A stretch of 64,000 nt of DNA from Candidatus Harrisonbacteria bacterium (lineage in GTDB: Bacteria > Patescibacteriota > Minisyncoccia > UBA6257 > 02-FULL-45-10c): assembly GCA_016214655.1 (NCBI GenBank), contig JACROC010000006.1:21377-85376 (forward strand). The letters are read 5' to 3'. The notes under the pieces were generated by a model that did not search any database, was not told where the DNA came from, and was given only the letters and a program-made list of their open reading frames with translations. Below are positions 7,422 to 27,567 of the stretch, in pieces (the stretch's first letter is position 1; each line of letters begins with the position of its first letter). A program made the translations under genes and the position numbers.

Positions 7422-8804
7422 ATGAAAAAAACTTTATTTTTTTCCGCTTATTCAACCATGGGATTCAGAAATTTTTTGGTGATTCCTAATGGCGTGGCTG
7501 CGCGGCTGGCGCAAAATAAAAACTTGGAATTAGTTTTCTTGATTCCGAGAGGATCCAATCTCGGCGCCTTGATTAAAAAATATAACCTTGGCCCGAATGT
7601 AATTGTTGAAGAGGTGGATACGAAAATGCAGAAATTTTCGCTTATTCAAAAAGCATTTTATTTTTTTTATTCCTATCTTATTTTTACCGGCACGACTCGC
7701 CTGCTTGCGACATTCGGGGCGCGGGCTGACGCGCCTCCGGCCGGAGGTAATAGATACGCCGCGCCTCTTAAAAGCTTGATTTCCAAAACATTCGGAAGAT
7801 CCCGGCGGATTAAAACCGTTTTTGTTCCGTGGGCGTATAAGAAGCTTTTTTTCAGGAAAGAACTTGCCGATCTTTTTGAAAAGTATCACCCAGATTTGGT
7901 ATTTTTATCCGGCATCGCCGCCTTTGAGGACGAGGAATTATTGGCGGAAGCGCAGCGTAGAAGGGTGAAGACGATTGGCATGCCTACAAACTGGGATCAC
8001 CTTAATAAGTATTATATTCCGGTTCATGCGGACTTTTTGCTGATCCAGAATGAGCCGATGAAAAAAGAGGCGATGGAATATCATGGTTATCGCGAAGATC
8101 AGATTGTGATGGTAGGTTTTCCGCAATTTGATTTTTATGTAATCGGAAAGGAATATATTAAGCCGCGTGCGGAGGTGTTTAAAAAATACGGGTTTGACCC
8201 GGATTCAAAACTCATCTTATTTATTTCCGGAAGCGTTTATGCTTTGGACGAACAGGATATTTTAAGGGCTATTTATGATCGGGCCTGGCGCGGAGAATTT
8301 GGATATCCGGTTAGCGTGATGGTGCGCCCATATCCAAATCGCGCCGACATCGTCAAATATAAGCACTTGGAGGGCTTGCCGGGAATTGCATTTTTTTGGG
8401 AAAATACTTCAACTAATTTTGAAAATATTATTGAATTTACAAATATCCTACGCCATGCCGATGCGGTTATTTCCGTATTTTCCACGACGGCGATTGAAGC
8501 TGCGATATTTGATAAGCCAACTATTACTATAGGATTTGACGGCTATAGTAAGCGGCCGATGCACCAATCTTTGGCGCGCATGGAGAAGCTTTCGCATTTT
8601 AAACACGTACTGGACACCGGGAGCGTGAAAGTTGCGCGAAGTTTTGAGGAATTATTCGCCCAACTAGGCCAATACTTGAAGTCGCCGGAAACTGATCGGG
8701 AACAGCGTAAACTGTTAATCGAAAAAATGTGTTACAAAATGGACGGCAATTCCACGCAGCGGATTGTTGAGTTTATTAATGCGCAACTAAGCGATGCAAA
8801 ATAG
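7422..8804 (+). CDS. TagF/TagB-like CDP-glycerol glycerophosphotransferase-family protein (paralog 1 of 5)
   Basis: Shares with four other ORFs the motifs YHPDLVFLSG...VKTIGMPTNWDHLN, KLILFISGS (compare the family motif ILYAPTWR) and STTAIEAAIFDKPTITIGFDGY (compare the family motif DYSSVxFDFxxLxKPII). About 450 aa. Confidence 0.5.
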   Translation: MKKTLFFSAYSTMGFRNFLVIPNGVAARLAQNKNLELVFLIPRGSNLGALIKKYNLGPNVIVEEVDTKMQKFSLIQKAFYFFYSYLIFTGTTRLLATFGARADAPPAGGNRYAAPLKSLISKTFGRSRRIKTVFVPWAYKKLFFRKELADLFEKYHPDLVFLSGIAAFEDEELLAEAQRRRVKTIGMPTNWDHLNKYYIPVHADFLLIQNEPMKKEAMEYHGYREDQIVMVGFPQFDFYVIGKEYIKPRAEVFKKYGFDPDSKLILFISGSVYALDEQDILRAIYDRAWRGEFGYPVSVMVRPYPNRADIVKYKHLEGLPGIAFFWENTSTNFENIIEFTNILRHADAVISVFSTTAIEAAIFDKPTITIGFDGYSKRPMHQSLARMEKLSHFKHVLDTGSVKVARSFEELFAQLGQYLKSPETDREQRKLLIEKMCYKMDGNSTQRIVEFINAQLSDAK

Positions 8805-10170
8805 GCCGGCTTCTTTTACTAAGAAATTTATCAGCGGCGAGATGTACTTCGGATTTTGGGGCATGATTTCCAAGGTATTAGGTTTGGGCAACACTTTTTT
8901 GACCGTCTCCTCATTAACGGTTTATCAGTATGGAGTATTGCAATTGATTCTTGCCACCTATGCGGCGTTCGCTGATCTGATGCTGATCGGCAGTCCGGTA
9001 GTCAGCAATGAGATTTTCCGTTTAGTCGGATCGGGAAAAGAGGAAAAAGCAAAACGCCTTTTTTTTGAATATAATAAGCTTTACGTATTAATCGCAATAT
9101 TTTTTTGGGGCTTATTCTTTTTTGGCGCGCCGGTTCTTTCATTCAGATATGGTCCGGATTTCATTCAATTCGCCAAGATTATTTCATTTTTATTTTTATT
9201 TGAGGTCTTCTTGGCTGCAGCGAAATTATTGCTTAAATTGAGGTTGAAGTTTAAAGTTGTCGCCAGCCGGTCTTCAATTGCTAAATTTGTCCAATTTTCT
9301 ATATTAAGCTATTTCTTTTTCTTTTCGCACCTTGGTTTGAGAGAGGTTTTGTTGTCTTTGGTAATTGCCATGTTTATCTCTCTTTTATCTTTAGTTCCGG
9401 CCGCAATAAAAGCTTATCGTCCATGGGTCGGTAGGGCCGCCTTAAACGAAAGGATTCTTTTGGGGATATTTTTTGCGCATGGTAAGTGGGATATATTAAG
9501 ATCTTTATTCTCAAGATTAACCTCAAGAATTGAGCCGTGGATACTCAAATTATTTGTCGGTACGGAAGCCGTTGCCATTTTTTCCGTGGCTAACACGATT
9601 GTTGGAACAATAAAAGACTATTTCCCGAATAATACGATAAATTCTCTCGCCGCCTTGGCCGTAGAAGATAAAGCCAGGTCCCAAAGAATTTTTTCTTATG
9701 GAATGAAATATATGTTTTTACTTTCAATCGCGGTATCTATTGCGGCGCTAATTGCGGTTCCTCCCTTTATTAGATTATTTTTTGCGAAATATAGCGCTTC
9801 TTTGCCGCTTTTCTACATCCTATTGTTTAATTTGCCGATGGGAATGCTGGCATTTATGCCGTCTATTTATTTACAAATTCTGAAGAAACAGAAGTTTTTA
9901 CTCTATCAAGGAGTCATAAGATCTATCATAGAAATTCCGTTAGTATTGATTCTGGTTATTCTATTTGGATTGTGGGGGTTAGTTGCAAAGGAAATATTAA
10001 TAAAGCTGATCATGTTCCCGATCACCCTCTGGTATTTTTTGAGATATCAAAATCTGGTATCCATAAAATGGGGCGAGTTATTTTCATTTACCGGAAACGA
10101 TAGAATATTCTTGGCGAATATGTATTCTAATTTTACTTCTTTGATTAAAATGAAATTGAATATAAAATGA
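8794..10170 (+). CDS. polytopic membrane protein, putative MOP/Wzx-type glycopolymer flippase
   Basis: 458 aa and about 12-14 hydrophobic segments throughout. Embedded between TagF-like paralogs. No soluble domain. Confidence 0.35.
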   Translation: MQNRPASFTKKFISGEMYFGFWGMISKVLGLGNTFLTVSSLTVYQYGVLQLILATYAAFADLMLIGSPVVSNEIFRLVGSGKEEKAKRLFFEYNKLYVLIAIFFWGLFFFGAPVLSFRYGPDFIQFAKIISFLFLFEVFLAAAKLLLKLRLKFKVVASRSSIAKFVQFSILSYFFFFSHLGLREVLLSLVIAMFISLLSLVPAAIKAYRPWVGRAALNERILLGIFFAHGKWDILRSLFSRLTSRIEPWILKLFVGTEAVAIFSVANTIVGTIKDYFPNNTINSLAALAVEDKARSQRIFSYGMKYMFLLSIAVSIAALIAVPPFIRLFFAKYSASLPLFYILLFNLPMGMLAFMPSIYLQILKKQKFLLYQGVIRSIIEIPLVLILVILFGLWGLVAKEILIKLIMFPITLWYFLRYQNLVSIKWGELFSFTGNDRIFLANMYSNFTSLIKMKLNIK

Positions 10171-10178
10171 ACTGATAT

Positions 10179-11531
10179 ATGAAAACTATATTTTTATTCA
10201 TACCGAATTACGTCTACTCCTCTGATTTTTTATGTACCGGATTTATAAGATGCCTGGTTTCCAGATTCCGGGTCGTTATTTTCGCGCCCGAGGTGATTTT
10301 GGAGAGCAATAAATTGCGGCTTCAATCGCCGAACCTGGTTTGTATAAAGTGGGAAACACAATATCCGCGATTTTGGAATTTATTCGGAAGATATTTGCGG
10401 TATTCTCTTATCAGGAAATATGATTTTGAACCGGTGATTCAGCGGAACCGCAAAAAAGGAATGAAGGATTGGCGGAGAAAAATATTGCGGTTTTTTTCGT
10501 ATGCGTTTCCGGCGGCGTGGCTGACGCCGGATCTTTTTTTTAAATTGGAAATTTTACTGGCCCCCAAATCCAAATTATTTTCAGAATACGCGGAAAAGTA
10601 TCAGCCGGCCATTGTTGTTACTCCTACTCCGGGATTTACTCATTTTGACGCCGAAGCGATTGTGCTGGCGAAAAAATCGCATCTTCCCACCGCTGCCATC
10701 GATTTTAGCTGGGACAACCTGCATAATGGCGGCCCGCATTTTAGAAGAGTCGATTATCTGATTGTTTGGAATAAAATTATTAAAAATACTGCCGTCAGGG
10801 AATACGGATATCCGGAAAACCGCGTTTTTGTTTCAGGAATAATGAGATTTGACCATTACTTTAAAAAACAGCCCGGCGAATTGTCCAGGGAAGAATTTCT
10901 TAAAAGTAAAAATTTAGACCCGAAGGAAAAGTTAATACTTATTACTACGGTCACTAAGGGCAATTATCCCAACGAGCATTTATTATTAAAAGATTTATTG
11001 GAAGCCAGAGAGAAAAATGTTTTTAACGGTTTCCCGAATATTCTGGTCAGAATGCACCCTAAAGAAGAAGTGAAAAATTTTACCGCTTTTCTGGATGCGG
11101 GAATCAGGGGTTTATGCGTTGAAAAAGCCGGTAAAGAAAAAGCAGTGGAATTGGGCAGTAATATTGAAATGGATGAGGAGGACCTGTTAAATCTCAAGCA
11201 TACTTTGGAATATTGCGATCTGAACATCAATTACTTATCCACTATTACCCTAGAAGCTTTTGTTTTTGACAGGCCGGTTATTAATATCAACTATCCGCCG
11301 GAATATCATTTGGGCTATACCTTCAGCCATTATAAGCCGTTGATTGAAATGAAATCTGTCCGGCTGGCATATAGTTTTGAAGAGCTGATTAACGATATCA
11401 ATATTTATTTTAAAAATCCCAATCTGGAACATCGGGAACGGCAGGCGGCTTTTGAGAAATATATCAAGTTTTCCGACGGCCTTAGCTACAAGAGGAGCGT
11501 TGATTTTTTGCATTCCATATTATATAAATAA
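10179..11531 (+). CDS. TagF/TagB-like glycerophosphotransferase-family protein (paralog 2, most divergent)
   Basis: YQPAIVVTPTPGFTHFDAEAIVLAKKSHLPTAAIDFSWDNLHNGG, KLILITTVTKGNYP and STITLEAFVFDRPVININYP align with the paralog motifs. Confidence 0.45.
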   Translation: MKTIFLFIPNYVYSSDFLCTGFIRCLVSRFRVVIFAPEVILESNKLRLQSPNLVCIKWETQYPRFWNLFGRYLRYSLIRKYDFEPVIQRNRKKGMKDWRRKILRFFSYAFPAAWLTPDLFFKLEILLAPKSKLFSEYAEKYQPAIVVTPTPGFTHFDAEAIVLAKKSHLPTAAIDFSWDNLHNGGPHFRRVDYLIVWNKIIKNTAVREYGYPENRVFVSGIMRFDHYFKKQPGELSREEFLKSKNLDPKEKLILITTVTKGNYPNEHLLLKDLLEAREKNVFNGFPNILVRMHPKEEVKNFTAFLDAGIRGLCVEKAGKEKAVELGSNIEMDEEDLLNLKHTLEYCDLNINYLSTITLEAFVFDRPVININYPPEYHLGYTFSHYKPLIEMKSVRLAYSFEELINDINIYFKNPNLEHRERQAAFEKYIKFSDGLSYKRSVDFLHSILYK

Positions 11532-11550
11532 CCAAGTGTTTAAGCGGTTT

Positions 11551-12768
11551 ATGCGGGATAAACAGGTGCAGAATTTGGTTGGGCAAGAATTGAGGCGGCA
11601 GCAGCTTTCGCTTGATTTAATTGCTTCGGAAAATTACGTTTCTCCCCAGATACTGAAGATTTTAGGATCGCCGCTGGTTAATAAATATTCCGAGGGTTAT
11701 CCGGGAAAGCGATATTATCCCGGCAATGAATTTTATGACCTGATTGAAAAATTGGCCCAAGACCGGGCCAGGAAGGTTTTTAATCTGTCTCACCGGAGCT
11801 GGGATGTTAACGTTCAGCCGTATTCCGGTTCGCCTGCAAATCTGGCGGTTTATTTCGCTTTAATGGATCCGGGTGATGTTTTGATGGGTATGAATTTGAT
11901 GTCTGGCGGCCATTTGACCCATGGCCATAAAGTGAATTTTTCCGGCAAAATTTATAAATCGGTCCAATACGGCGTTAATGAACAAACCGGGTTGGTAGAT
12001 TATTCCAAGGCGGCAAATCTAGCCAGAAAATATAAACCAAAGGTTATTGTTTCCGGGTTAACGGCTTATCCCAGAAAAATTAATTTCAAAAAATTCGGCC
12101 AGATTGCCAAATCGGTCGGCGCATATCATTTGGCGGACATTTCACACATTGCCGGCTTGGTAGCGGCTGGTTTGCACCAGTCCCCATTTCATTATAGTGA
12201 CGTAGTAATGACCACAACTCATAAGACTTTGCGCGGTCCAAGGGGCGCGATAATTTTTGCCAGGAAAGAATTATCTGAAAAAATAGATAGGGCGGTTTTT
12301 CCCGGGATTCAGGGCGGCCCGCACAATAACGTAGTTGCCGCCAAAGCAGTGATGTTTTTTGAGGCGCTAAAGCCGGAATTTAAGCGGTATCAGCGGCAAG
12401 TTGTAAAAAACGCCGCTGCTCTGGCTGGTAATTTAAGGGATTTAGGATTTAAATTAGTTACCGGCGGAACGGATAATCATTTGATTCTCGTTGATCTCAG
12501 GGATTCTTTGATTGACGGGTTAACCGCGGAGAAAATACTGGAAAAAAATAATATTACTGCGAATCGCAATGCTATACCGGGTGACTATTCTCCGTTTAAG
12601 CCGTCGGGCATCAGAATCGGCACGCCAGCGGTCACCACTCGTAGGATGGGCGAGTCGGAAATGTCTGAAATTGCCGGATTCATTTATCTGGCTTTAATTA
12701 AAAAACGAGATGTTAAAAAGGAAGTTGAAAAATTATGCAGAAGGTTTCCCTTGGAATATGGATATTAA
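11551..12768 (+). CDS. glyA: serine hydroxymethyltransferase
   Basis: LDLIASENYVSPQILKILGSPLVNKYSEGYPGKRYYPG... and the PLP-lysine region VVMTTTHKTLRGPRGAIIF. ATG at 11551 (the listed start at 11452 is upstream of the previous gene's stop). Confidence 0.9.
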   Translation: MRDKQVQNLVGQELRRQQLSLDLIASENYVSPQILKILGSPLVNKYSEGYPGKRYYPGNEFYDLIEKLAQDRARKVFNLSHRSWDVNVQPYSGSPANLAVYFALMDPGDVLMGMNLMSGGHLTHGHKVNFSGKIYKSVQYGVNEQTGLVDYSKAANLARKYKPKVIVSGLTAYPRKINFKKFGQIAKSVGAYHLADISHIAGLVAAGLHQSPFHYSDVVMTTTHKTLRGPRGAIIFARKELSEKIDRAVFPGIQGGPHNNVVAAKAVMFFEALKPEFKRYQRQVVKNAAALAGNLRDLGFKLVTGGTDNHLILVDLRDSLIDGLTAEKILEKNNITANRNAIPGDYSPFKPSGIRIGTPAVTTRRMGESEMSEIAGFIYLALIKKRDVKKEVEKLCRRFPLEYGY

Positions 12769-13654
12769 AAATTTTATTGTAAATTATCATTATGTTGAGG
12801 ATCCCCGGCCGGATTTTTCCGGCATTTGGCCGTGCTCTATTAGCGAATTTGAGCGTCAAATAAAATTCTTATCCGGTAATTTTTCTATAGTGTCGGCTGT
12901 TGACGTTTATAGGGCATCCCAGGAGAATAGCGGGGGTAATTATTGCGCCATTACTTTTGATGACGGCTTGAGGGATCAATATCAGAATGCGGTCCCGATT
13001 TTGAAAAAATATAACGCGACCGCGACTTTTTTTATTATTACTGATACCCTTAATGGATTTTTGCCACCCGCCCACCAGATCCACTTTTTGCTTTCCAAAG
13101 TTCCGGCAGAAAAATTAATTGATTTATTCAACGATTTTCAGAACCAATATCAGATACCCAAAGATCGGAGAGTTAATCCTAAAAAAAGACTTTTTGAGGA
13201 TATTTTGATTGCCAATTTTAAAGAAACTATGATGTCGGCGCCCCAAGACCTGACAGAACCGTTTTTGGGACATTGTTTTGAAAATCTTTCTTTGGATCCG
13301 GAAAAGTTCGGGCGGGGAACCTTTATGGATGAGCCGGAAATTCTCAGTTTAAGAAACACCGGTTTTTCCATCGGCAGCCACGCCCATAAACATTATTTGG
13401 AAGAAAGCATTAATCAAAAATATTTTCCTAGCGAGGTACGGGATTCTAAAAAAATTCTCGGGAGACTCCTCGGAGAAGATCCGACGATTTTCTCTTATCC
13501 CCATGGCCGGCACAATAATGAGGTTATCGCCCTTTTAAAAGAAGAAGGATTTAAACACGCTTTTATCACGGATCCGCGTCCCCCGAGGGCTGGAGACAAT
13601 CCGTATCTTATACCGAGACTGGATACCAACGATATTAAAAAATTAATTTATTAA
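12758..13654 (+). CDS. polysaccharide deacetylase (NodB-homology, CE4)
   Basis: NodB motif 1 AITFDDGLRDQ and His motif IGSHAHKH. ATG at 12758 overlaps the glyA stop. Confidence 0.7.
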   Translation: MDIKNFIVNYHYVEDPRPDFSGIWPCSISEFERQIKFLSGNFSIVSAVDVYRASQENSGGNYCAITFDDGLRDQYQNAVPILKKYNATATFFIITDTLNGFLPPAHQIHFLLSKVPAEKLIDLFNDFQNQYQIPKDRRVNPKKRLFEDILIANFKETMMSAPQDLTEPFLGHCFENLSLDPEKFGRGTFMDEPEILSLRNTGFSIGSHAHKHYLEESINQKYFPSEVRDSKKILGRLLGEDPTIFSYPHGRHNNEVIALLKEEGFKHAFITDPRPPRAGDNPYLIPRLDTNDIKKLIY

Positions 13655-13656
13655 TT

Positions 13657-14454
13657 ATGGTTTCAGCAGTTTTAATAACCAGCAATGCTTTACGGCATCA
13701 TTTTGTCGCCAATTATCTTTCTGACCATTTGAATTTGGCGGGCGTGGTATCTGAAGCCAAGCTTGCTTCTCCTCAGGGCGCCACCGTGGCGGAGGATGAA
13801 ATCATAAAAACGCATTTGCAGGAATTGAAAGAAACAGAGAAAGAATTTTTCGGTGGATATGAAAATTTTAAAATTCCAAAAAGCAGCGTATTAGAAATCG
13901 CGCGCGGCACTTCTAATGACCCCGCGGTTTTTGAGTGGGTTAAAAATAAAAATCCGGAATACCTGATTTTATTCGGATCCTCAATAATCAAAGACCCCCT
14001 TTTGAGTTATTTTAAGGATAAGGTGATTAATATGCATTTGGGTTTGTCCCCGTATTATCGCGGCTCTGGAACTAATTTTTGGCCCCTGGTATTTCGCGAA
14101 CCGGAGTGTGTCGGCGCAACTATTCATTTGGCGACGCTTGAGGTTGATGCCGGCGCAATCTTGGGTCAAGTGAGGCCGGACTTTGTTCCTGGTGATAATT
14201 GCCACACTTTGGGTTTTAAAACCGTTATTGCCGGAACGCAGTTACTGGTAAAGATCATTGGGGCGTATAATAAAGGAAATCTGGCGGGGCATAGACAAAA
14301 TCTGTCTATTGGCAAAGTATTTAAGAAAAAGAATTTTAATGCCGAAGCAGTGTTAGCTATGAGGAAAAATTTTGAAACCGGAATGATTGAAGAATATTTA
14401 AATGATCAGGCAGATCGCAATCAACAATATCCAATAATTTCCCCATTTTTATAA
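13657..14454 (+). CDS. formyltransferase-domain protein, sugar N-formyltransferase-like
   Basis: Formyl_trans_N catalytic signature NMHLGLSPYYRG (compare N-x-H-x-S-LLP-x-x-RG) and GATIHLATLEVDAGAILGQ (catalytic Asp). 265 aa with no tRNA-binding C-terminal domain, so not Fmt. Confidence 0.6.
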   Translation: MVSAVLITSNALRHHFVANYLSDHLNLAGVVSEAKLASPQGATVAEDEIIKTHLQELKETEKEFFGGYENFKIPKSSVLEIARGTSNDPAVFEWVKNKNPEYLILFGSSIIKDPLLSYFKDKVINMHLGLSPYYRGSGTNFWPLVFREPECVGATIHLATLEVDAGAILGQVRPDFVPGDNCHTLGFKTVIAGTQLLVKIIGAYNKGNLAGHRQNLSIGKVFKKKNFNAEAVLAMRKNFETGMIEEYLNDQADRNQQYPIISPFL

Positions 14455-17753: not shown

Positions 17754-17754
17754 T

Positions 17755-18556: not shown

Positions 18557-18561
18557 ATAAA

Positions 18562-19551: not shown

Positions 19552-19560
19552 ATATATATT

Positions 19561-19590: not shown

Positions 19591-19607
19591 GAATTATCAT
19601 TAAAAAA

Positions 19608-20624
19608 ATGAATTATTACGAAATACAAAATCAATCCAGGAAATTGCTTTCTTGGTTTTTAGATATAAGATCGAAAATCCTTGATTTAGATGGAGAGCAC
19701 CGTGTTTATGAAATTGCCGAAATTATAGCTTGTAATTATAGAAATTTAAATATTAATTTTCCTAAAAATGAAGTCATTGTAAGCGCTCCTCAAATTACAA
19801 ATAATTATTTTAATAATGATTCGGAATATAGGAAGCCTGTTAAGGATTTATTTAATCTAGTAAACAGGGAGCTCTCTCCATTTGTCAGTCAATTTTATTT
19901 ACACGGTAGCTTAGCTACCGAAGATTATAAAAAGGGATGGAGCGATTTAGATACATTTATGGTTATTAATGGGGAGGTTGTATTAGACGCGAAAAAGCTA
20001 ATTAAACTTCGAGAAATATGTTTTAATGCCTGGCCGATATTTTTGGAAATTACCCCATTACAGCATCACGGATTTATAATCATTACTGAGCTTGATACAA
20101 AATGTTATTCTAATTCTTTTTTACCAACGGAAGTATTTAAGTTGTCACTAGCTATGAAAAATAACCAGCCAACGCTTAAATTGTTAATTCGGGACGATGA
20201 TGGGTTGTCTAAAAATTTATTATTAAATAGATTAGAGCTTGCTCGTGAATCGGCGAATGAAGGAATTTTTAAATATCATCCACACAATGGGAAATATCTT
20301 TTATCTGAATTTCGTAATGCAAACGATTCAATGCATCAACTGTTTTCATTTTTAGGAAATAATATGAATGCTCCAATTTATTTTTTAGATTCTATTGGGA
20401 AAGGCTGTCATAAAAAAGAATCTTTTTTAAGAGCGCGATCATATTTTTCGGATGAGGCCTGGAGCGTTATTGACAAAGCAAGTATTATCAGGGATTTATG
20501 GCCAGATAAGGAAGGTCAAAGATACAGAGGTAATGCGATTCCGAAGTGGGTTATGGAAATTTTAGGGAAAAATTATATTAAGGAAGCCGTTACTTTGTGG
20601 GAAGAAGCGGTTAGTAATGTTTAA
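19608..20624 (+). CDS. uncharacterized protein with polymerase-beta-type nucleotidyltransferase-fold motif (possibly LicD/fukutin-like phosphotransferase)
   Basis: hG[ST]-x10-[DE]h[DE]h pattern: LHGSLATEDYKKGWSDLDTFMVI. No other recognisable domain. 338 aa. Confidence 0.3.
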   Translation: MNYYEIQNQSRKLLSWFLDIRSKILDLDGEHRVYEIAEIIACNYRNLNINFPKNEVIVSAPQITNNYFNNDSEYRKPVKDLFNLVNRELSPFVSQFYLHGSLATEDYKKGWSDLDTFMVINGEVVLDAKKLIKLREICFNAWPIFLEITPLQHHGFIIITELDTKCYSNSFLPTEVFKLSLAMKNNQPTLKLLIRDDDGLSKNLLLNRLELARESANEGIFKYHPHNGKYLLSEFRNANDSMHQLFSFLGNNMNAPIYFLDSIGKGCHKKESFLRARSYFSDEAWSVIDKASIIRDLWPDKEGQRYRGNAIPKWVMEILGKNYIKEAVTLWEEAVSNV

Positions 20625-20636
20625 AAATGAAATATT

Positions 20637-21695
20637 ATGAATAAAAAATTTGTTAATCCACCGCCTCGCAATATTAGTTTGGCGAAATATGATGCTGCCC
20701 ACAAAGAGCTTATCGAAGTCTTTTCGCAGTTTACGGATGTTGCGGCTTTGTATGATTATGGCACCGTCCATAATCCCGGCATTAGCGACCTCGATATTTT
20801 TCTGATTTTAAAGGGTGATTTGCATTCTTCGAAGGCAGAAGACTATCTTATTAGTGAAAAGAAATTTCCCCATACATATTCTCTTCCCCGAGGCACATTA
20901 ATGGTTATGAATGTTGGTGATTTTCAAGGGGTTCACTGGTTTGACGATCAAATTAAACTAAGCCATTTTTTTGGAGATAAAATTATATTGCAGGATATAG
21001 ATCTAGAAATGCAACGGCAGAGATTTTTTGCAAGTATTATTGATTGGCTGCCAGAGCGTTTAGGTGCCTTAGTCCGCTTACTACAGAAATCGGAAATCGA
21101 CATAGTATTTTCGCTACGCGTATTGAGGTGTTATTGTTATACGTTGGAAAAATTATACAAACTTACCAAGGGTTCTCAATATCAGGAATTTGTTAATCGA
21201 GTTTTGGATTTAAGAAACCATTGGAATGACGGAAGAGAAAAAGAATTAGTTGAATTAATACGTGGAGGAATCGTATTAGGATGTAAAGCGCTTTTAGATG
21301 TTTCGGATACGATTCTAAAAAATGAAGAAGGAGCTGTTGGTGAATTATCTTTATATCCCGATCTGAGATTTCATTTTATTGATAATGCGCAACTATTATC
21401 TGCTCAATGGATTTTGTCCAATTTGCATCCATCGAGTATTGTTATCCCGGTTCCGAGCACATATGCCCCGCATTTTTCTTTTTATAGCCAGCAGCCGGGA
21501 TTTCTAGCGGAACAAATGCGTCGGCAAATGAATATGTCGTTGATGCTTCAACCGAAGAGTGAATTATATAGAAAATTTTTAGCTAAGAAAATCGGATTGG
21601 CAACTCGTGCCGGAGAATTTTTGCTTCGCAATGGATTTAAGGACGGGCTTTTTCGTTTTGGGTTCTATTTTAAAAATTATTTGAATAATTTTTAA
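20637..21695 (+). CDS. uncharacterized nucleotidyltransferase-fold protein, distant paralog of the preceding gene
   Basis: YDYGTVHNPGISDLDIFLIL shows the same G[ST]...SDLD-hydrophobic-strand pattern. 352 aa. Confidence 0.3.
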   Translation: MNKKFVNPPPRNISLAKYDAAHKELIEVFSQFTDVAALYDYGTVHNPGISDLDIFLILKGDLHSSKAEDYLISEKKFPHTYSLPRGTLMVMNVGDFQGVHWFDDQIKLSHFFGDKIILQDIDLEMQRQRFFASIIDWLPERLGALVRLLQKSEIDIVFSLRVLRCYCYTLEKLYKLTKGSQYQEFVNRVLDLRNHWNDGREKELVELIRGGIVLGCKALLDVSDTILKNEEGAVGELSLYPDLRFHFIDNAQLLSAQWILSNLHPSSIVIPVPSTYAPHFSFYSQQPGFLAEQMRRQMNMSLMLQPKSELYRKFLAKKIGLATRAGEFLLRNGFKDGLFRFGFYFKNYLNNF

Positions 21696-22407
21696 AATTC
21701 TGTTCGGCGATCTTGAGATCTTTATACGTATCGATATCAACAAATTTTTCCTTTGGCATAATAAACCCACATACTTTGCTTCCCCACACCCTCCCCCCTT
21801 TTATATATTTGGCTTTTGTGGCATATATTAATCCAACTTGTAAATAATATCGCGGAAGCATTTGTCTGGGTACATCAGTTCCTAGTTTTCTGTAGTTTGT
21901 GGTTGGTAAGAGCGCTTTCATGCGACCACTTTTACCATGAGGCAGTGTCCACATCTTGAATGGATTGTAGGGACTAGGATCAATTATTGTTCTTATAGAT
22001 TCACATTTATGTCGATGCATGAATGTAAGAACATTATCAATGTCTTTTCCTGTTCTAAATGGTGATGTTGGTTGAAGTATGACGATAATATCGGGATCCC
22101 ATCCTCGATTTTTTTGAAGCCACTGTAGCGCATGGGCCAAAAAGTCAATATCTTTTGATTTATCACCAGCTAATCTTTTGGGGCGGAGGAACGGGACGTC
22201 GGCTTTATATTTTTTTGCTACCCTGGCAATTGCGGGATCATCGGTTGACACCATGAATGTATCTAGTAGTTTAGATTGTTGTGCGGCGCGGATAGTATAA
22301 TAAATTAGAGGTTTTCCGTGTAGGGGAATAATATTTTTATGAGGTATTCCCTTTGATCCGCCGCGTGCAGGAATGATTCCGACTATTTTTATCTGACTTT
22401 TTTTCAT
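21670..22407 (-). CDS. neuA: acylneuraminate (CMP-nonulosonic acid) cytidylyltransferase
   Basis: KIVGIIPARGGSKGIPHKNIIPLHGKPLIYYTIRAA...STDDPAIARVAKKYKADV, the CTP_transf_3 signature. Confidence 0.8.
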   Translation of the reverse strand: MKKSQIKIVGIIPARGGSKGIPHKNIIPLHGKPLIYYTIRAAQQSKLLDTFMVSTDDPAIARVAKKYKADVPFLRPKRLAGDKSKDIDFLAHALQWLQKNRGWDPDIIVILQPTSPFRTGKDIDNVLTFMHRHKCESIRTIIDPSPYNPFKMWTLPHGKSGRMKALLPTTNYRKLGTDVPRQMLPRYYLQVGLIYATKAKYIKGGRVWGSKVCGFIMPKEKFVDIDTYKDLKIAEQNFKNYSNNF

Positions 22408-22492: not shown

Positions 22493-23809
22493 ATGACTAT
22501 TTTTATCACTAGTTTTCAATCGCTTATTTCACGGAATATTTTAGGAACTCCACTACTTTCATTTTTGAAAAGTAACAATGTGCAAGTGGTGCTTTTGGTT
22601 CCTCAAAAAAAGAAAGATTTTTTTGAAGAAGAATTCAGAGAATTTGAAGTTGTTGTAGAGAGTATTGATACAAAGTTGCAATGGCAAGATAAATTTTTAC
22701 GCTATCTATTTCTTACAGCGCTTAAGACGCGTACTTTAGACATCAAGCGGGAAACAGAAATGAAGGGAAGCGGGAAATGGCTTAAGGTTATTATTAGAAA
22801 TAGTAGCATAGGACGGAAGATGTTGCGATGGCTAAATGCGATTTTGACCCCACGCAATACATTTAAAGATTCATTTCAAAAGTATAATCCTGATTTAGTA
22901 TTTTCAACTGATGCACAAAATGAAATAGATGTCAGGTTGCTCTTGGATGCAAAAAGGAATGGCGTGAGCACGATCGGCATGGTTCGATCATGGGATAATC
23001 TTACCGCTAAGGGCGTGATTCGGGTTATCCCGGATTTGTTAGCGGTTCATAATGAAATTCTTAAAGAAGAAGCTATAACTCTTCATGGAATTCCGGAAGA
23101 AAGGATAAAGATTATCGGCATTCCGCACTACGATCGATATTTTCAGGGCTCGCATTCCAGCCGGGAGGAATTTATGAAACGAATCGGTGCTAATCCCCAA
23201 AAGAAATTAATATTATTTGCGCCTACCGGCGATCGGTATATCGGTGAAAATACAGTTGATAAAGAAGTGTTGGAGATTTTGGATAAAAATATCGGAGAAG
23301 AATACCAGATTTTGGTGCGTTTTCCGCCGGCTGATACGGTATCAGGCCTGGATGGCCGGGAAAACAACAGCCGTTTTATTTTTGACCGGCCGAGCAGGCG
23401 ATTTAAAGTATTAAAAAATACCGAACTTACCAAAGAAGAAGACGCGCATCTGGTAGATTCGATTTATTGGAGCGATTTGATAATCGCAGGCCCATCTACG
23501 CTCTGTGTTGATGCGGCAGTTTTCAACAAGCCGATAGTGCTGGTTGGATTTGATGGCTATGAAAAGCGCCCATATTATCAAGGTATCCGCCGATATTATG
23601 ATTACAATCATTTTGATCCGATACTTAAAAGCGGAGGAGTAAAATTAGCAGAGAATGCAGAGGCGTTAGCTAAATCTGTAAAGGCTTATTTGCAAAATCC
23701 ATTTCTGGATGAACAGGGGAGGCGAGCGATTGTCCGGCAAGAATGTTGGAATACGGATGGGAAAGCAACGGAGCGGCTGGCAAATTCGTTAATTTCCGCA
23801 CTTAAATAG
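22493..23809 (+). CDS. TagF/TagB-like glycerophosphotransferase-family protein (paralog 4)
   Basis: YNPDLVFSTDAQNEIDVRLLLDAKRNGVSTIGMVRSWDNLTAKG, KLILFAPTGDRY, AGPSTLCVDAAVFNKPIVLVGFDGY, and C-terminal RQECWNTDGKATERL. Confidence 0.5.
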   Translation: MTIFITSFQSLISRNILGTPLLSFLKSNNVQVVLLVPQKKKDFFEEEFREFEVVVESIDTKLQWQDKFLRYLFLTALKTRTLDIKRETEMKGSGKWLKVIIRNSSIGRKMLRWLNAILTPRNTFKDSFQKYNPDLVFSTDAQNEIDVRLLLDAKRNGVSTIGMVRSWDNLTAKGVIRVIPDLLAVHNEILKEEAITLHGIPEERIKIIGIPHYDRYFQGSHSSREEFMKRIGANPQKKLILFAPTGDRYIGENTVDKEVLEILDKNIGEEYQILVRFPPADTVSGLDGRENNSRFIFDRPSRRFKVLKNTELTKEEDAHLVDSIYWSDLIIAGPSTLCVDAAVFNKPIVLVGFDGYEKRPYYQGIRRYYDYNHFDPILKSGGVKLAENAEALAKSVKAYLQNPFLDEQGRRAIVRQECWNTDGKATERLANSLISALK

Positions 23810-23851: not shown

Positions 23852-24562
23852 ATGAAAACGCTTTCTGTTGTGATTCCGGTATACAATGAAAAAAATACAA
23901 TTCACAATGTTCTTTCGGCGGTAGAGAAATCGGATATCGGCAACATCGAGAAAGAGATTATCATTGTGGATGATTGTTCCGCTGACGGTACGCGCGAGAT
24001 TTTGGCTGAACTGGAAAAGCAGAAGAAATATAAAATCTTGTATCAGGAGAAAAACATGGGCAAGGGCGCGGCGCTTCGCCGCGGGTTTTCGTCGGTTACC
24101 GGCGATTTTATAATTATCCAGGATGCAGATTTGGAATATGATCCGGCGGAATACGGCACAATGCTGAAGCCGCTCTTGGATGGCCGCGCCGATGTAGTTT
24201 ACGGTTCCCGTTTTTTTGGCGGAGAAAAAACTGTGCACCGCGCATTATTTTTTTGGCATTACTTGGGAAATAGATTTATTACTTTTGTCTCAAATCTTTT
24301 TACCAATCTTAATCTCACCGATATGGAGACCGGTTATAAGGCATTTACAAAATCGGCCATTGAGAAGATCGTCCCGCATTTGGAATCAAATCGTTTTGGC
24401 ATAGAGCCGGAAATTACCGCCTATGCGGCAAAAAACCGTTTGCGCGTTTACGAAGTCGGCATTTCGTATTCCGGAAGGACCTATGAAGAAGGAAAAAAAA
24501 TAAATTGGAAAGACGGTATTGCGGCGATTTGGTTCATAGTGAAATATAATTTACTGAAATAA
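23852..24562 (+). CDS. GT2-family polyprenyl-phosphate glycosyltransferase (DPM1/GtrB/ArnC-like)
   Basis: [14 protein letters not shown]...[12 protein letters not shown]...[10 protein letters not shown] (the DxD and acceptor motifs). 236 aa, soluble-type DPM1-like. Confidence 0.8.
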
Positions 24563-24564
24563 AT

Positions 24565-26214
24565 ATGGCTTTTGGAATTTTTACAAAATTTTCGGTGTTG
24601 CCGGTACTGCTCCAAAAAATATTTTTGCTGCAATTTCCTAATATATATACGCAGCACAACTTTATTATTTTAATTGAATCGCTGGTCTATATTTATGCTT
24701 CTTTTTTGGCGGGATCGTTTTTGTTGAGGAAAATGGGGCTTGACCTGAATTCCCGATTGAAACAGGCTGCCTATTCGGTAATGAGCGGATATGCCATTTT
24801 TGGTCTCTGGGGATTGGTTTTGGCCGCATCCGGATTATTTGAGCCGATGTATTTAAGGATGTTTTTGGTTTTGGCTGTTCTTGGTTCGGCGGGAACTATC
24901 GCAAAGCAGGGGATGGAAATCTGGAAGGCGGATTATTCAAAAGAGAGAATAACCCGTTTTCTGAAAACGATAGCAGACAGTTCATTAATTTTGAAATTAC
25001 TTATTGCGCTTTGGATAGCTGCCAATTTTGCCATTGTACTTGTGCCGATAACTGGCCATGATACGCTGCATTATCATCTTCCGATTATGGCGAATTTAAT
25101 TAGCGAGGGAAGGATGAATTTTGATACTGCTTTGCCGAGCAGATTTTTGCCGATTTTCGGAGAGATTATCTATGCGGTGCCAATGGCGATTTTCAGCAAT
25201 CTTACGGAACCATTTGTGTTCCAGGTGATGCAGTACAGCTTTTTGATTTTATTTGCGATTTTGATATACGAATTTTTGAAACCGCGTATTTCCAATCAAT
25301 TCTTGGGTCTTGCGGCAGTATTGCTTTTATTCTCAATTATGGATTTTCAGCGTGAGATTATGCACGGCGGATACATAGATGTATTGGCATTTCTATTTGG
25401 CAGCGCTAGCACTCTGCTTTTGATTGAAAACTGCTGCGAGGTGAATATGCGGCCTAGAGAAGTGATGCTTTCCGCGCTGATGCTCGGGGTTGCGCTCGGC
25501 GTTAAATATCTTGCATTGGTTTTTGCGGCAATCAACTTTTTATTTTTATTGGTGATGTTTTGGCGGCAGAAGGTAAATTATGGCGTTATAGCAAGGTGGC
25601 TGGCAGGATATGGGCTTATCATATTTGCCGTGTCGGGGTTTTGGTATTTAAAAAATGCGATTTTCTTTGGAAGCCCTATTTACCCGATGTTTTCTAACAA
25701 ATTGTTTACCTCGCAGGTAAATGTGTTTCTTTTAGACAGGACGGTACTTAATTTTTTCTGGTTTCCGTTTTATCGGTACGGACAGTGGTTTGTCCAGGAT
25801 GTGGAGACCTCCAGCCGTCTTGTGGTGCTGGGATATTTTATTGCCGCATATCTTTTATTCGCGATTTTCTTTTTCAGTAAAAAACTGCGTTGCGCAGAAA
25901 CGCTTTTATTCGTTTTTGTGCAATTATATCTTTTGTTTTTGTTTTTTATGTCCCATCAATATCGGTTCTTACTTCCTTCTAATATCATGCTGGTTCCGCT
26001 TTTGATCTTATTTATTGACCAGGTGTATCAATTTTTAAAAACAAAACTTTTTGAAAATCCATATTCTATTTTTGTCAGAGCATCTTTTTGGGCGATGAGT
26101 ATAGGTTTTGCACTGTTATTCCTCGCCAACACTCATTATTTATACGCTAAATTTTCGTATGCGACTGGCGTGTATGACCAGGATGAATACAGAAGCGAGA
26201 TTGGCGGGTTCTAG
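24565..26214 (+). CDS. polytopic membrane protein, putative GT-C-type glycosyltransferase (GT39/GT83-like) partnered with the upstream GT2
   Basis: 549 aa and more than 12 hydrophobic segments. Acidic/His loop (GHDTLHYH) after TM helices 3-4. Gene order GT2 then large membrane protein is typical of polyprenyl-P-sugar donor/GT-C pairs. No diagnostic motif confirmed. Confidence 0.3.
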   Translation: MAFGIFTKFSVLPVLLQKIFLLQFPNIYTQHNFIILIESLVYIYASFLAGSFLLRKMGLDLNSRLKQAAYSVMSGYAIFGLWGLVLAASGLFEPMYLRMFLVLAVLGSAGTIAKQGMEIWKADYSKERITRFLKTIADSSLILKLLIALWIAANFAIVLVPITGHDTLHYHLPIMANLISEGRMNFDTALPSRFLPIFGEIIYAVPMAIFSNLTEPFVFQVMQYSFLILFAILIYEFLKPRISNQFLGLAAVLLLFSIMDFQREIMHGGYIDVLAFLFGSASTLLLIENCCEVNMRPREVMLSALMLGVALGVKYLALVFAAINFLFLLVMFWRQKVNYGVIARWLAGYGLIIFAVSGFWYLKNAIFFGSPIYPMFSNKLFTSQVNVFLLDRTVLNFFWFPFYRYGQWFVQDVETSSRLVVLGYFIAAYLLFAIFFFSKKLRCAETLLFVFVQLYLLFLFFMSHQYRFLLPSNIMLVPLLILFIDQVYQFLKTKLFENPYSIFVRASFWAMSIGFALLFLANTHYLYAKFSYATGVYDQDEYRSEIGGF

Positions 26215-26229
26215 TGTTATATATTGCAT

Positions 26230-27567
26230 ATGATTAAAACGCTTTTTTTAACTATATTTGAAGGGGCAGAGGCGCGGAATCTTTTACGGACTTCAGTGGC
26301 GCCGACGCTATTAAGCGATCCGGAAGTGCGAATTGTGCTTTTTACGAAAAGTCCGGATCGCGTGGAGTATTATAAAAAAGAATTCAGCGATCCGAGATTG
26401 ATCTATGAGGTAGTGGCGCCGATAAAAGTTGAAGGATTAGACAAGTTCTTTGCCTTCTTAAAATTTCTTCTTTTAAAAACCGAAACTACGGATCTCCGGC
26501 GCTCCTCGCGCTTTAGCTTATTTGCCAGCTGGCTCTTGGCCCGGCCCGCAGTAAGGAGGATGGTCCGATTTCTGGATTATCATTTGGTGAGAAATTCCGC
26601 GTATAGCCGCTATTTTGACGCTTATAAACCGGACGCGGTTTTGCTTGCCCATTTATTTGATGAACCAGAGATTCATCTTTTGCGCGAGGCAAAAAAGCGC
26701 AGAGTAAAGACGATCGGATTTGTAAATTCGTGGGATAAGGTTACGGCCCGCTGTATCCTGCGCTTGCTGCCCGATAAGGCAGTCGTCTTTAACGATGTCG
26801 TGAAAAAAGAAATGATGGAGCATAATGAAATGGCGGAAAAAGATATTTTTGTTAGCGGCCTGCCCCAATACGATAGTTATTTTATGGATAAAAATTACAC
26901 TTCGCGGGAAGTTTTTTTTAATAAATTAAATCTTGATCCGAGGAAAAAATTAATCGTCTACGCGCCGCTGGGCCGCACCTGTGGCGAATCTGACTGGGAT
27001 ATAATCGATCTTTTATATCGTCTCCGTGACAGCGGAAGATTCGGCGATGGCGCGGATTTACTTGTCCGGTTCCAGCCCAATGATTTCTTGGATGAGGCAG
27101 AATTGAAAAAGCGGCCACATCTTAAGTATGATTATCCGGGCACCCGTTTTTCTTCGACGCGCGGCATAGACTGGGATATGAATGCCGAGCACTTGAAGCA
27201 TTTAAGGGACACGCTTCATCATATGTCGCTTTTGGTATGTTACGCGTCTAGCGTCAGCATTGATGCGGCGATTTTTGATAAACCGATTATTAACATTAAT
27301 TTTGAAACCCGGAAACCGGATTCTTTTGAAGAGTCTTCAACTAAATATTATTCGTTCACTCATTACAAAAAAGCGCTGGCTACGGGAGGAATCCGCCTGG
27401 CGAGCAGCGAGGAAGAATTGGTTGCAGCAATTAAGGAATACCTTGCTGATTCTTCGCCTGATCGCGAAGGCAGGAAGAGATTGGTGCGCGAACAATGCCA
27501 ATTTGTTGACGGTAAAGCCGGCGAGAGGATTGGTAAATTTATACTAGAGCCATTTAAGACCCAATGA
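26230..27567 (+). CDS. TagF/TagB-like glycerophosphotransferase-family protein (paralog 5)
   Basis: YKPDAVLLAHLFDEPEIHLLREAKKRRVKTIGFVNSWDKVTAR, KLIVYAPLGRT, ASSVSIDAAIFDKPIININFE, C-terminal REQCQFVDGKAGERI. ATG at 26230. Confidence 0.5.
   Translation: MIKTLFLTIFEGAEARNLLRTSVAPTLLSDPEVRIVLFTKSPDRVEYYKKEFSDPRLIYEVVAPIKVEGLDKFFAFLKFLLLKTETTDLRRSSRFSLFASWLLARPAVRRMVRFLDYHLVRNSAYSRYFDAYKPDAVLLAHLFDEPEIHLLREAKKRRVKTIGFVNSWDKVTARCILRLLPDKAVVFNDVVKKEMMEHNEMAEKDIFVSGLPQYDSYFMDKNYTSREVFFNKLNLDPRKKLIVYAPLGRTCGESDWDIIDLLYRLRDSGRFGDGADLLVRFQPNDFLDEAELKKRPHLKYDYPGTRFSSTRGIDWDMNAEHLKHLRDTLHHMSLLVCYASSVSIDAAIFDKPIININFETRKPDSFEESSTKYYSFTHYKKALATGGIRLASSEEELVAAIKEYLADSSPDREGRKRLVREQCQFVDGKAGERIGKFILEPFKTQ

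Follow-up and report, generated by a model that had tools for sequence, protein, structure and literature searches.

Bacterial sialyltransferases and polysialyltransferases of families GT38, GT52 and GT80 adopt the GT-B fold and use a CMP-nonulosonate as the donor; their N-domain supplies an Asp/Glu base, and an HP-type contact to the phosphate comes from the C-domain. The GT-B fold is also that of TagF, TagB, TarF and TarL (PF04464; PDB 3L7I, 8VA1), with a catalytic-base histidine in the N-domain (TagF H444, TarL H300) and another histidine, in a K-x-H-P motif, that contacts the alpha-phosphate (TagF H548, TarL H433). TagB, TagF and TarL depend on both of these histidines (PMC10901376).

The Tannerella forsythia BFO_1060 family of pseudaminic/legionaminic acid transferases (NF046086) includes Tanf_01245 and TFUB4_00887, which have a TagB-type domain and are required for the decoration of the O-glycan with Pse or Leg derivatives, as established by knock-out and complementation (PMC5420450). 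A related TagB-domain protein, SpsB of B. subtilis, adjoins a legionaminic acid pathway and was reported to be dispensable for Leg transfer (PMC7439481). KpsS/KpsC (GT107), WbbB (GT99), KpsS1 (GT118) and KrkA (GT140) are retaining ulosonic-acid transferases with CMP-activated ulosonic acid donors; their related modules, sometimes fused, act in turn with one donor, and the residue central to catalysis is a carboxylate (PMC12887879).

Five putative transferase genes in one glycan cluster

The window, i.e., the whole 64-kb stretch of DNA analyzed, comes from a tiny, uncultured bacterium (CPR/Parcubacteria), and its large surface-sugar gene cluster holds five TagF-related ORFs, named P1–P5 (Table 1). 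The earlier note had taken them for one homologous family of 438–460 aa proteins, and this was borne out: BLASTP identities among them were 27–40%, with E values of 3e-28 to 5e-101 and mostly full-length matches, the closest pair being P3/P4 (40%). An HMM built from the five copies and run on the 160 six-frame ORFs of at least 80 aa in the window recovered P1–P5 alone (E <= 1e-183), with no sixth copy at E < 10. The start of P5 was given as TTG 26224 by the ORF lister; ATG 26230 yields the 445-aa protein deposited in GenBank. No transmembrane segment was found in any copy, and the N-domain of each has an insertion rich in basic and aromatic residues (net charge +7 to +12). These two features suit a monotopic membrane binding, and a membrane association of this kind would probably be shared with TagF, TagB, TarF and TarL.

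Table 1. Genes of the glycan cluster in window coordinates.
Feature	Position	Strand	Details
GT4	39-797		Pfam; cut by window start
GT9	804-1940		Pfam
GT4	1940-3004		Pfam
GDP-mannose 4,6-dehydratase	3030-4052		Pfam
DegT aminotransferase	4049-5251		Pfam; RfbH/PseC-type aminotransferase matches
GT4	5248-6474		Pfam
RmlD-like reductase	6462-7352	-	Pfam
P1	7422-8804	+	460 aa; TagF-like GT-B; PF04464 47.2 bits; GenBank MBI4992197.1
Wzx-type flippase, polytopic membrane protein	8794-10170	+	PF01943 Polysacc_synt; at least 9 hydrophobic segments
P2	10179-11531	+	450 aa; PF04464 36.9 bits
Serine hydroxymethyltransferase	from 11452	+	Probable start ATG 11551; PF00464 542 bits
Polysaccharide deacetylase	12710-13654	+	PF01522
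Formyltransferase	13657-14454	+	PF00551; ArnA/PurN-like formyltransferase matches
P3	14488-15855	+	455 aa; PF04464 40.8 bits
Methyltransferase	15839-16699		Nonulosonate donor module 1
NeuB-type synthase without SAF domain	16774-17715		Module 1; PF03102 254 bits
SDR	17819-18556		Module 1
GFO/IDH/MocA oxidoreductase	18520-19551		Module 1
NTP_transf_2 protein	19608-20624		Module 1
Unknown 352-aa protein	20637-21695		Module 1
PseF-like CMP-sugar synthetase	21670-22407	-	Module 1; PF02348 77 bits
P4	22493-23809	+	438 aa; copy chosen for structure model
GT2 glycosyltransferase	23852-24562	+	PF00535 122 bits
549-aa membrane protein, roughly 12 segments	24565-26214	+	12 hydrophobic segments; weak NF047510 LIC_10190-family match
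P5	26230-27567	+	445 aa; PF04464 51.6 bits
Methyltransferase	27627-28256	+	Nonulosonate donor module 2
Methyltransferase	28266-29279	+	Module 2
NeuC hydrolysing UDP-GlcNAc 2-epimerase	29385-30566	+	Module 2; TIGR03568 359 bits, above cutoff 236
CMP-sugar synthetase	30559-31278	+	Module 2; PF02348
D-2-hydroxyacid/phosphoglycerate dehydrogenase	31293-32228	+	Module 2; PF02826
NeuB with SAF domain	32225-33346	+	Module 2; PF03102+PF08666
UDP-glucose-dehydrogenase-like ORF, apparently truncated	33391-34308		Pfam
Wzy_C/O-antigen-ligase-type membrane protein, C-terminal TPRs	34335-36590		Pfam; 11 hydrophobic segments
Second Wzx-type flippase	36561-38009	-	Pfam
Bac_transf initiating phosphoglycosyl transferase	38057-39397	-	Pfam

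The genes at 39–7352 belong to this glycan cluster as well and lie on its upstream side, and those at 33391–39397 are its downstream assembly and export genes. A putative tailoring module for de-N-acetylation and N-formylation lies at 11452–14454, while the GT2 may be a polyprenyl-phosphate-sugar synthase that works together with the 549-aa membrane protein as a membrane transferase or polymerase. A pair of a GT2 and a large membrane protein recurs in a JGI CPR locus, beside a weak PMT match.

The expansion within one locus claimed in the earlier note is a misleading description, because each copy is more similar to its orthologs in other genomes (44–67% identity) than to its paralogs in the locus. 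Orthologs of P1 reach 67% identity (e.g., in locus L004), those of P2 about 60%, within a conserved gene order GT9, P2, P4, P5, those of P3 about 44%, and those of P5 54–57%, usually as the next gene downstream of one of P4 type. P1–P5 represent old, diverged subfamilies rather than the outcome of a recent local expansion. Two or more family copies occur in 57 of 81 related loci, and natural two-domain fusions were found, including a P4-like::P5-like protein (P0246) and others to GT4, methyltransferase and deacetylase domains. Several transferase modules per donor are the norm among the related loci, with two to five copies of the family per locus as compared to only one of BFO_1060.

Sequence relatives and donor genes

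In the comparison with NCBIfam models, NF046086 was the top match of all five copies (72, 86, 51, 52 and 57 bits for P1 to P5, the best score being 85.6) and also of ten members from other phyla (34–74 bits), with TIGR04396 ranking second for the five copies and the ten relatives. The stretch that matched NF046086 best was in most of these proteins the N-terminal domain with the S-W-D loop. Since the scores are far under the family cutoff of 200, P1–P5 are not members of the characterized BFO_1060 family. They resemble its transferases in size (about 445 aa), in the TagB/GT-B-type domain without transmembrane segment, and in the adjacency to genes for methyltransferases and CMP-nonulosonate synthesis (PMC5420450), the synthesis genes of the window being of the CMP-Pse or CMP-Leg type. 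On the other hand, two short motifs of bacterial sialyltransferases that have been reported for the Tannerella proteins, D/E-D/E-G and HP, are not conserved in the family of P1–P5. In a comparison with the motifs as reported, D/E-D/E-G was present in P3 alone, at a non-conserved site, and HP was at the structurally relevant site in P2 alone; the sialyltransferase motifs are those of Freiberger 2007 in the form in which PMC5420450 cites them.

Concerning the donors, the window has two NeuB genes, two CMP-sugar synthetases (CTP_transf_3) and one NeuC, the latter above its equivalog cutoff. Module 1 (15839–22407) was matched by TIGR03569/TIGR03586 and TIGR03584, in all cases under the equivalog cutoffs, and its unknown proteins gave no sequence match in the PDB. 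The cytidylyltransferases encoded in the locus belong to the CMP-ulosonate type (PF02348). Pfam scans of the window ORFs tested found no cytidylyltransferase of PF01467 or PF01128, no ORF within the 64-kb window matched a TagD query (a sequence validated as PF01467 at 97.6 bits), and no gene for CDP-glycerol or CDP-ribitol synthesis (tagD/tarD, tarI/tarJ) was found in the locus. CDP-polyol genes could lie elsewhere in the genome, beyond the window. Among 41 related loci of at least 18 kb, from several phyla, CMP-synthetase-like genes occur in 34, NeuB-like genes in 30 and NeuC-like genes in 27, while a TagD-like gene occurs in none of them (and in one of the 81 loci overall). The block NeuC, NeuB, CMP synthetase, 2-HADH and Wzy_C recurs in CPR loci, and outside CPR the nonulosonate link was found in Singulisphaera sp. 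Ch08 (L068, a cultured carrier of the family), Acidobacteriota, Saprospiraceae and Gammaproteobacteria.

It could be considered that P1–P5 are ordinary GT-B glycosyltransferases working with UDP-, GDP- or dTDP-sugars or with mixed donors, and that nonulosonate genes are nearby just as parts of one large cluster. However, the association of the family with CMP-synthetase and NeuB genes is found in several phyla and in loci of different architecture, where the genes are often immediate neighbours. Moreover, the only significant family matches at the sequence level were PF04464, NF046086 and TIGR04396, all of them cytidine-nucleotide-dependent, and no GT1, GT4 or GT28 model matched any of P1–P5 significantly. 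This makes the use of other nucleotide sugars by the whole set unlikely. Nevertheless, as there are five transferases versus two nonulosonate pathways in the window, and the copies outnumber the NeuB genes in most related loci, some copies may use other donors.

Comparison with TagF and its histidine pair

GenBank (PGAP) names all five proteins "CDP-glycerol glycerophosphotransferase family protein", and the earlier note also read them as true TagF/TagB-type enzymes, which would transfer a polyol- or other alcohol-phosphate from a CDP-donor to a teichoic-acid-like glycan. The family assignment stands insofar as all the copies passed PF04464 with 37–57 bits versus a gathering score of 22.1, but the match is limited to profile positions about 132–366 of 367, i.e., the C-terminal, nucleotide-binding half, and the TarB, TarF and TarL equivalog models gave about 20 bits versus cutoffs of 500–1000. 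The structure prediction proposed in that note gave for P4 a confident GT-B fold that resembles the structures of TagF and TarL; of the structural matches of the modelled copy, these two had the highest identity in sequence. In profile-profile comparison with hhalign, the family matched genuine TarL-like enzymes with 99% probability (E 8e-18). The homologous C-terminal cytidine-nucleotide domain shares the motifs GxPxxD, K/R-x-(H)-P, S-S/T...E/D...K-P and a C-terminal DG..S..R, whereas the N-domain showed no significant profile similarity to that of TagF/TarL.

The shared blocks quoted in the earlier note are genuine, as the alignment of the five copies displays YxPDxV, SWDxLT, KKLILxxP, SxxxIDAAIFDKPI and REQCxxxDGxSxER, none of low complexity. 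Across 163 family members (numbering of P4), the invariant or near-invariant residues are P133, S166, W167, D168, G209, D214, R276, P347, H373, D422, G423 and R428, with D168 and R276 kept in every member and W167 in 159. The TagF histidine pair behaved differently. No N-domain column holds a conserved histidine that would correspond to the catalytic base, and just two N-domain columns, both at variable positions, have His in at least 25% of the 163 members. In genuine TarL-like enzymes, QxWH and KxHP are invariant. The loop after the strand equivalent to the TarL W-H strand bears W167-D168 in P4 (W191-D192-H in P1, W178-D179 in P2, W185-D186 in P3, W168-D169-K in P5), its equivalence to TarL W299-H300 being one of secondary-structure order, since the profile alignment of this region alone was not significant. 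At the HP position, P1 to P5 have VRPYP (Y304), VRMHP (H293), VRFPP (P292), VRFPP (P278) and VRFQP (Q282), with His in P2 only; the register of this region shifts by 1–2 residues between programs, and P3, P4 and P5 lack His in any register. In the whole family, this position is His in 48 of 163 members, Pro in 45, Tyr in 30 and Gln in 27, so the histidine is missing in 115 members, including whole subfamilies. As judged from the alignments, the catalytic histidine pair of TagF/TagB/TarL is not conserved, and the family instead has a Trp-Asp pair and an Arg that are invariant.

The loss of residues essential in TagB, TagF and TarL, together with the lack of TagD-like genes and the CMP-ulosonate type of the cytidylyltransferases, makes a phosphotransferase function quite unlikely, despite the R-M-H-P kept in P2. 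The sequential polyol-phosphate additions put forward in the earlier note are without support, as the products of the donor modules located between the copies are of another kind, namely CMP-activated nonulosonic acids. It is very improbable that the copies without the HP histidine (P1, P3, P4 and P5) have no catalytic activity and serve an active copy as scaffold or acceptor-binding subunit, as whole His-less subfamilies and fused two-domain proteins might lead one to think, because those subfamilies keep W-D, R276, D214, P347, H373 and DG...R and are 44–57% identical across genomes, which suggests selection on the active site.

Proposed function

On the basis of gene context, we lean towards the interpretation that P1–P5 are CMP-nonulosonate-dependent glycosyltransferases, forming an unnamed family sister to the BFO_1060 transferases and acting on one Wzx/Wzy-type glycan. 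This comes close to the distinct, undescribed GT-B-like family that the earlier note had offered as an alternative. On balance, they seem to be peripheral-membrane GT-B enzymes with a more distant relationship to TagF, TagB and TarL than to BFO_1060.

The donor of each copy would be a CMP-activated nonulosonic acid from the two NeuB/CMP-synthetase modules of the locus, and the acceptor a growing undecaprenyl-diphosphate-linked oligosaccharide at the cytoplasmic face of the membrane. Different copies may form different linkages or use different acceptors, in some order of action; a common donor for several modules would have a precedent in the Kdo-transferase modules of KpsS/KpsC. The C-terminal domain would bind the cytidine nucleotide, as in TagF, while the S-W-D loop may provide the catalytic base through its invariant Asp, in place of the TagF histidine. 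The CMP phosphate could be handled by the invariant Arg that precedes the former HP position by two residues, with or without the HP histidine or the family-specific His373. Such a mechanism would be similar to that of GT38, GT52 and GT80 in the GT-B fold, the putative CMP-nonulosonate donor, the N-domain Asp/Glu base and the C-domain HP-type contact. With GT107, GT99, GT118 and GT140 it would share the CMP-ulosonate donor, the multiple or fused modules and the catalytic carboxylate, but neither their QxxxD nucleophile motif nor their fold was found in P1–P5. The finished glycan would be flipped by Wzx and then polymerized, or transferred to a surface acceptor, by the Wzy_C/TPR membrane protein. 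Altogether, the data suggest that this bacterium putatively uses the five enzymes for the attachment of sialic-acid-like sugars and not for the synthesis of polyol-phosphate chains of the teichoic-acid type.

Five homologues with a TagF-type C-terminal half

The five homologous ORFs described in the earlier note are present as described (see the table), and their pairwise identities are 27–40% (BLASTP, E from 3e-28 to 5e-101), with copies 3 and 4 as the nearest pair. When an HMM built from the five was run against all six-frame ORFs of the window, exactly these five were recovered, with no sixth copy at E < 10. The conserved sequence blocks reported in them are genuine, and the alignment excludes that they are a low-complexity artefact. 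GenBank names each of the five (MBI4992197.1, MBI4992199.1, MBI4992203.1, MBI4992211.1 and MBI4992214.1) "CDP-glycerol glycerophosphotransferase family protein", in agreement with the TagF-type family guessed earlier; copy 4 is 100% identical to its GenBank protein, encoded in a 103,474-bp contig of a metagenome-assembled genome of Candidatus Harrisonbacteria, a member of the Parcubacteria (CPR/Patescibacteria). Orthologues of the window copies in other genomes share 44–67% identity with them. They are thus closer than the paralogues are to each other, which rules out a recent tandem duplication and indicates that the five copies are old subfamilies rather than a recent local expansion.

Features of the glycan locus and its surroundings (copy 4 provides the residue numbering)
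Feature	Coordinates	Strand	Size or content	HP-site reading	H373 or counterpart
Copy 1 (P1)	7422-8804	+		VRPYP	H392
Copy 2 (P2)	10179-11531	+		VRMHP	H384
Serine hydroxymethyltransferase, deacetylase, formyltransferase	11452-14454	+	between copies		
Copy 3 (P3)	14488-15855	+		VRFPP	H384
Donor module 1	15839-22407		methyltransferase, NeuB, SDR, GFO-type oxidoreductase, two unassigned proteins, PseF-like CMP-sugar synthetase		
First NeuB	16774-17715	+	313 aa		
Copy 4 (P4)	22493-23809	+		VRFPP	H373
GT2 enzyme and membrane protein	23852-26214	+	membrane protein of ~12 segments		
Copy 5 (P5)	26230-27567	+		VRFQP	H378
Donor module 2	27627-33346		two methyltransferases, NeuC, CMP-sugar synthetase, 2-hydroxyacid dehydrogenase, NeuB with SAF domain		
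UDP-glucose/GDP-mannose dehydrogenase-like ORF	33391-34308	+	305 aa		
PaaX central Cas2-like domain protein	41659-42213	+	184 aa		
Lamin Tail Domain ORF	42829-47046	+	1405 aa		

All five copies matched PF04464, the profile of the CDP-polyol phosphotransferases, with 37–57 bits (gathering score 22.1), the match spanning profile positions ~132–366, i.e. the C-terminal half alone. The top NCBIfam match of every copy was NF046086, "BFO_1060 family glycosyltransferase" (51–86 bits; cutoff 200), followed by TIGR04396, and the TarB, TarF and TarL equivalogs gave only ~20 bits. In a PDB sequence search with the five-copy profile, the sole match was TarL (8VA1, E 5e-6), restricted to the C-terminal domain. 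The AF2 model of copy 4, obtained from a 54-sequence alignment, showed two Rossmann domains in a GT-B fold (pLDDT 93.7). A profile–profile comparison of the family with a set of genuine TarL-like proteins, gathered with a TarL fragment as the query, gave 99% probability and E 8e-18 over copy-4 residues 146–438. Considering these PF04464, PDB, fold and profile–profile matches, the homology to the TagF superfamily is real, and the relationship proposed in the earlier note stands, neither the PF04464 match nor the GT-B fold being wanting. The family is large: among 1.84 billion cluster representatives, the profile recovered 1,968 at E ≤ 1e-30 (clusters at 50% identity), 5,380 at E ≤ 1e-10 and 10,100 at E ≤ 1e-3.

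Catalytic positions

TagB, TagF and TarL depend critically on two invariant histidines; in TarL, W299-H300 serves as the base activating the acceptor hydroxyl, while H433 touches the alpha-phosphate and donates a proton to the departing CMP (PMC10901376). The TagF mutants H444N and H548A are named in PDB entry titles. Both histidines were invariant in 23 aligned TarL-like proteins, as QxWH and K-M-H-P. This pair, which the earlier note had suggested looking for, is absent as a conserved feature from the 163 aligned family members: there is no conserved N-domain histidine among them, and the residue at the position of the HP histidine is His in 48, Pro in 45, Tyr in 30 and Gln in 27. Within the window, that histidine is kept in copy 2 only. 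In members from other phyla the usual reading is VR[LP]HP, which makes R-x-H-P the apparent ancestral form; it is the same pattern as the K-M-H-P of TarL, with Arg for Lys.

The residues invariant across the 163 members are D168, R276, P133 and G209, and W167 is present in 159. In the AF2 model of a TarL-like protein, a strand (IILDDF) and a strand (LIQVW) followed by His precede a short helix, a strand, a helix and GxPRxD; in that of copy 4, a strand (LVFS-TD), a helix and a strand (TIGMV) followed by RSWD precede a short helix, a strand, a helix and GIPHYD. Since the order of elements matches in both models, the W-D of the family occupies the loop of the W-H of TarL. This order suggests, but only suggests, that W-D and W-H are equivalent residue by residue, a match unconfirmed by sequence methods, as the alignment restricted to this region had a probability below 1%. 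The placement of the TagF W-H on helix 144–155, returned by hhalign in local and global modes, was rejected because it conflicts with the strand-loop site in both AF2 models. In the P1 subfamily the motif reads W-D-H (P1 residues 191–193), with a histidine directly after the invariant Asp, compared to W-D-N or W-D-K in the others.

Another histidine, H373, is found in 149 of the 163 members, in a YxxxH[FY] loop of the C domain. It is specific to the family, TarL-like enzymes having no histidine at this site, and it might stand in for the lost HP histidine.

The glycan locus and its relatives

The genes around the five copies form a single glycan assembly cluster of ~39 kb, nearly all on the + strand and with short or overlapping junctions. 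Besides the modules in the table, a Wzx flippase lies between copies, and the flanks hold three GT4s, a GT9, a GDP-mannose dehydratase, a DegT protein, an RmlD-like reductase, a Wzy_C/TPR membrane protein, a second flippase and a Bac_transf initiating transferase. Across 1–64000, all 2-kb bins have a positive GC skew and the cumulative skew climbs steadily, with genes nearly all on the + strand and a GC content of 36–47%; skew and strand bias fit one leading-strand replichore segment.

Concerning the donor modules, the NeuC of module 2 scored 359 bits (cutoff 236), while both NeuBs and both CMP-synthetases fell under the Neu/Pse equivalog cutoffs, with scores too low to name the sugars of the two modules. 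The first NeuB carries no SAF domain and matches in two stretches, from NeuB profile position 40, and no PDB sequence matches were found for the 352-aa and 338-aa proteins of module 1. The serine hydroxymethyltransferase is full-length (PF00464, 542 bits) and lies directly 5′ of the polysaccharide deacetylase and the formyltransferase; its start is likelier at ATG 11551, because a start at TTG 11452 would put 80 nt inside paralog 2. Its unusual position inside a glycan locus suggests that it supplies one-carbon units locally to N-formylate an amino sugar or nonulosonate. N-formyl and N-glyceroyl groups are known nonulosonate decorations (PMC5378307), and decorations of this type appear to fit the tailoring enzymes of the locus.

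Other genes of the region deserve a brief mention. The dehydrogenase-like ORF matches in its N-domain from profile position 72, with no C-terminal UDP-binding domain reported in the Pfam scan, and could be a truncated or degenerate gene. A GT2 paired with a large polytopic membrane protein is seen again in CPR loci, once beside a weak PMT (GT-C) match (JGI 3300071325), and may represent an extracytoplasmic, polyprenyl-phosphate-sugar-dependent glycosylation step in the same cluster. The PaaX central Cas2-like domain protein (PF20803, 76 bits) also has a weak Cas2 match (PF09827). Just 3′ of the cluster, the ORF with two Lamin Tail Domain matches (PF00932, 81 bits) may encode a large surface protein, a candidate glycosylation target.

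A scan of GTDB species representatives yielded 79 related loci, mostly from Patescibacteria, the others coming from Acidobacteriota, Singulisphaera sp. Ch08, Saprospiraceae, Gamma- and Deltaproteobacteria, a Woesearchaeote and Heliomicrobium. Among the 41 loci of at least 18 kb, a CMP-synthetase-like gene was present in 34, a NeuB-like gene in 30 and a NeuC-like gene in 27; the chance of a NeuB in a random 20 kb of a ~1-Mb genome with 1–3 NeuB genes is a few per cent, by estimate rather than by a computed control. At least two family copies occur in 57 of 81 loci and at least three in 26; the maximum elsewhere is four, so the five of the window are the largest set seen. In CPR, the order GT9, P2, P4, P5, methyltransferase, NeuC, NeuB, CMP synthetase, 2-HADH, Wzy_C/TPR is kept, and some loci have two nonulosonate modules. 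In other phyla, family genes directly adjoin NeuB and CMP-synthetase genes. In the cultured planctomycete Singulisphaera sp. Ch08 (L068, NZ_CP155447.1, ~4,033,420–4,054,340), two members flank a CMP-synthetase and a NeuB, with a NeuC and a second CMP-synthetase upstream. The best profile matches also include predicted natural fusions of two family domains, or of a family domain with GT4, Methyltransf_23 or Polysacc_deac_1 (metagenome proteins P0246, P0247, P0248, P0250, P0253, P0249, P0355, P0323 and P0264), which mirror the gene neighbourhoods of the window; P0246 (897 aa) joins a P4-like and a P5-like domain.

Donor specificity and meaning of the family

On balance, the likeliest reading, a somewhat probable one, is that the five copies are CMP-nonulosonate-dependent glycosyltransferases. 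Descended from the TagF scaffold, they would be an as yet unnamed sister family to BFO_1060, peripheral to the membrane and acting on a lipid-linked glycan; we infer the donor, acceptor and mechanism from gene context and conservation. The BFO_1060 homologues Tanf_01245 and TFUB4_00887 of Tannerella forsythia have a TagB/GT-B domain and adjoin CMP-Pse or CMP-Leg genes, and knock-out and complementation showed that the terminal Pse/Leg derivative of the O-glycan requires them (PMC5420450). The relation of our family to BFO_1060 was assessed through the NF046086 scores, all below cutoff. Caution comes from B. subtilis SpsB, which has a TagB domain and adjoins a legionaminic acid pathway, yet is dispensable for Leg transfer (PMC7439481). 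In the retaining Kdo/Pse transferases GT99, GT107, GT118 and GT140, several related modules with a key Asp can act successively on one CMP-ulosonate donor (PMC12887879); their QxxxD motif is absent from the TagF-like family.

The copies could also be ordinary NDP-sugar transferases or a mixed-donor set, as they outnumber the nonulosonate pathways; we regard this as unlikely. Still less credible is that they are TagF-type phosphotransferases making the polyol-phosphate additions first proposed, given the missing histidines and the missing donor-synthesis genes: Pfam scans of the window ORFs and a TagD query revealed no CDP-glycerol or CDP-ribitol synthesis gene in the window (for TarI/TarJ-type genes the screen consisted of the Pfam scans of the window ORFs), and none of the 41 loci of at least 18 kb had a TagD-like gene.

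Returning to CMP-nonulosonate transfer, a fuller scheme may be put forward tentatively, as a possibility rather than an expectation: the His pair would have given way to an Asp base and an Arg that clamps the phosphate, so that a fold for CDP-polyol phosphotransfer became that of a CMP-nonulosonate glycosyltransferase, and CPR/Parcubacteria with 2–5 specialised copies would assemble a surface glycan with abundant sialic-acid-like sugars, perhaps in several linkages or as a polymer. Few nonulosonic acid transferases are known, and knowledge of them has been called "scarce" (Tomek et al. 2017). Among the papers searched, none on nonulosonic acids in Patescibacteria/CPR was found. Since Singulisphaera sp. 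Ch08 is a cultured carrier, the idea of nonulosonate transfer is testable.

If it is wrong, the copies are divergent TagF-like enzymes of a glycan locus, an ordinary finding. If it is right, ~2,000 sequence clusters named "CDP-glycerol glycerophosphotransferase family protein" would be mislabelled, automatic annotation calling the family teichoic-acid enzymes. The His-to-Asp and His-to-Arg changes would then illustrate the passage from a phosphotransferase scaffold to a glycosyltransferase. Many of the ultra-small CPR bacteria would be devoting a large share of a ~1-Mb genome to sialic-acid-like surface glycans, with a bearing on host recognition or evasion by these episymbionts. The fuller scheme, if true, would call for a new CAZy family and be the first evidence of nonulosonate glycans in CPR; its glycan could serve to attach to host cells or to recognise them.
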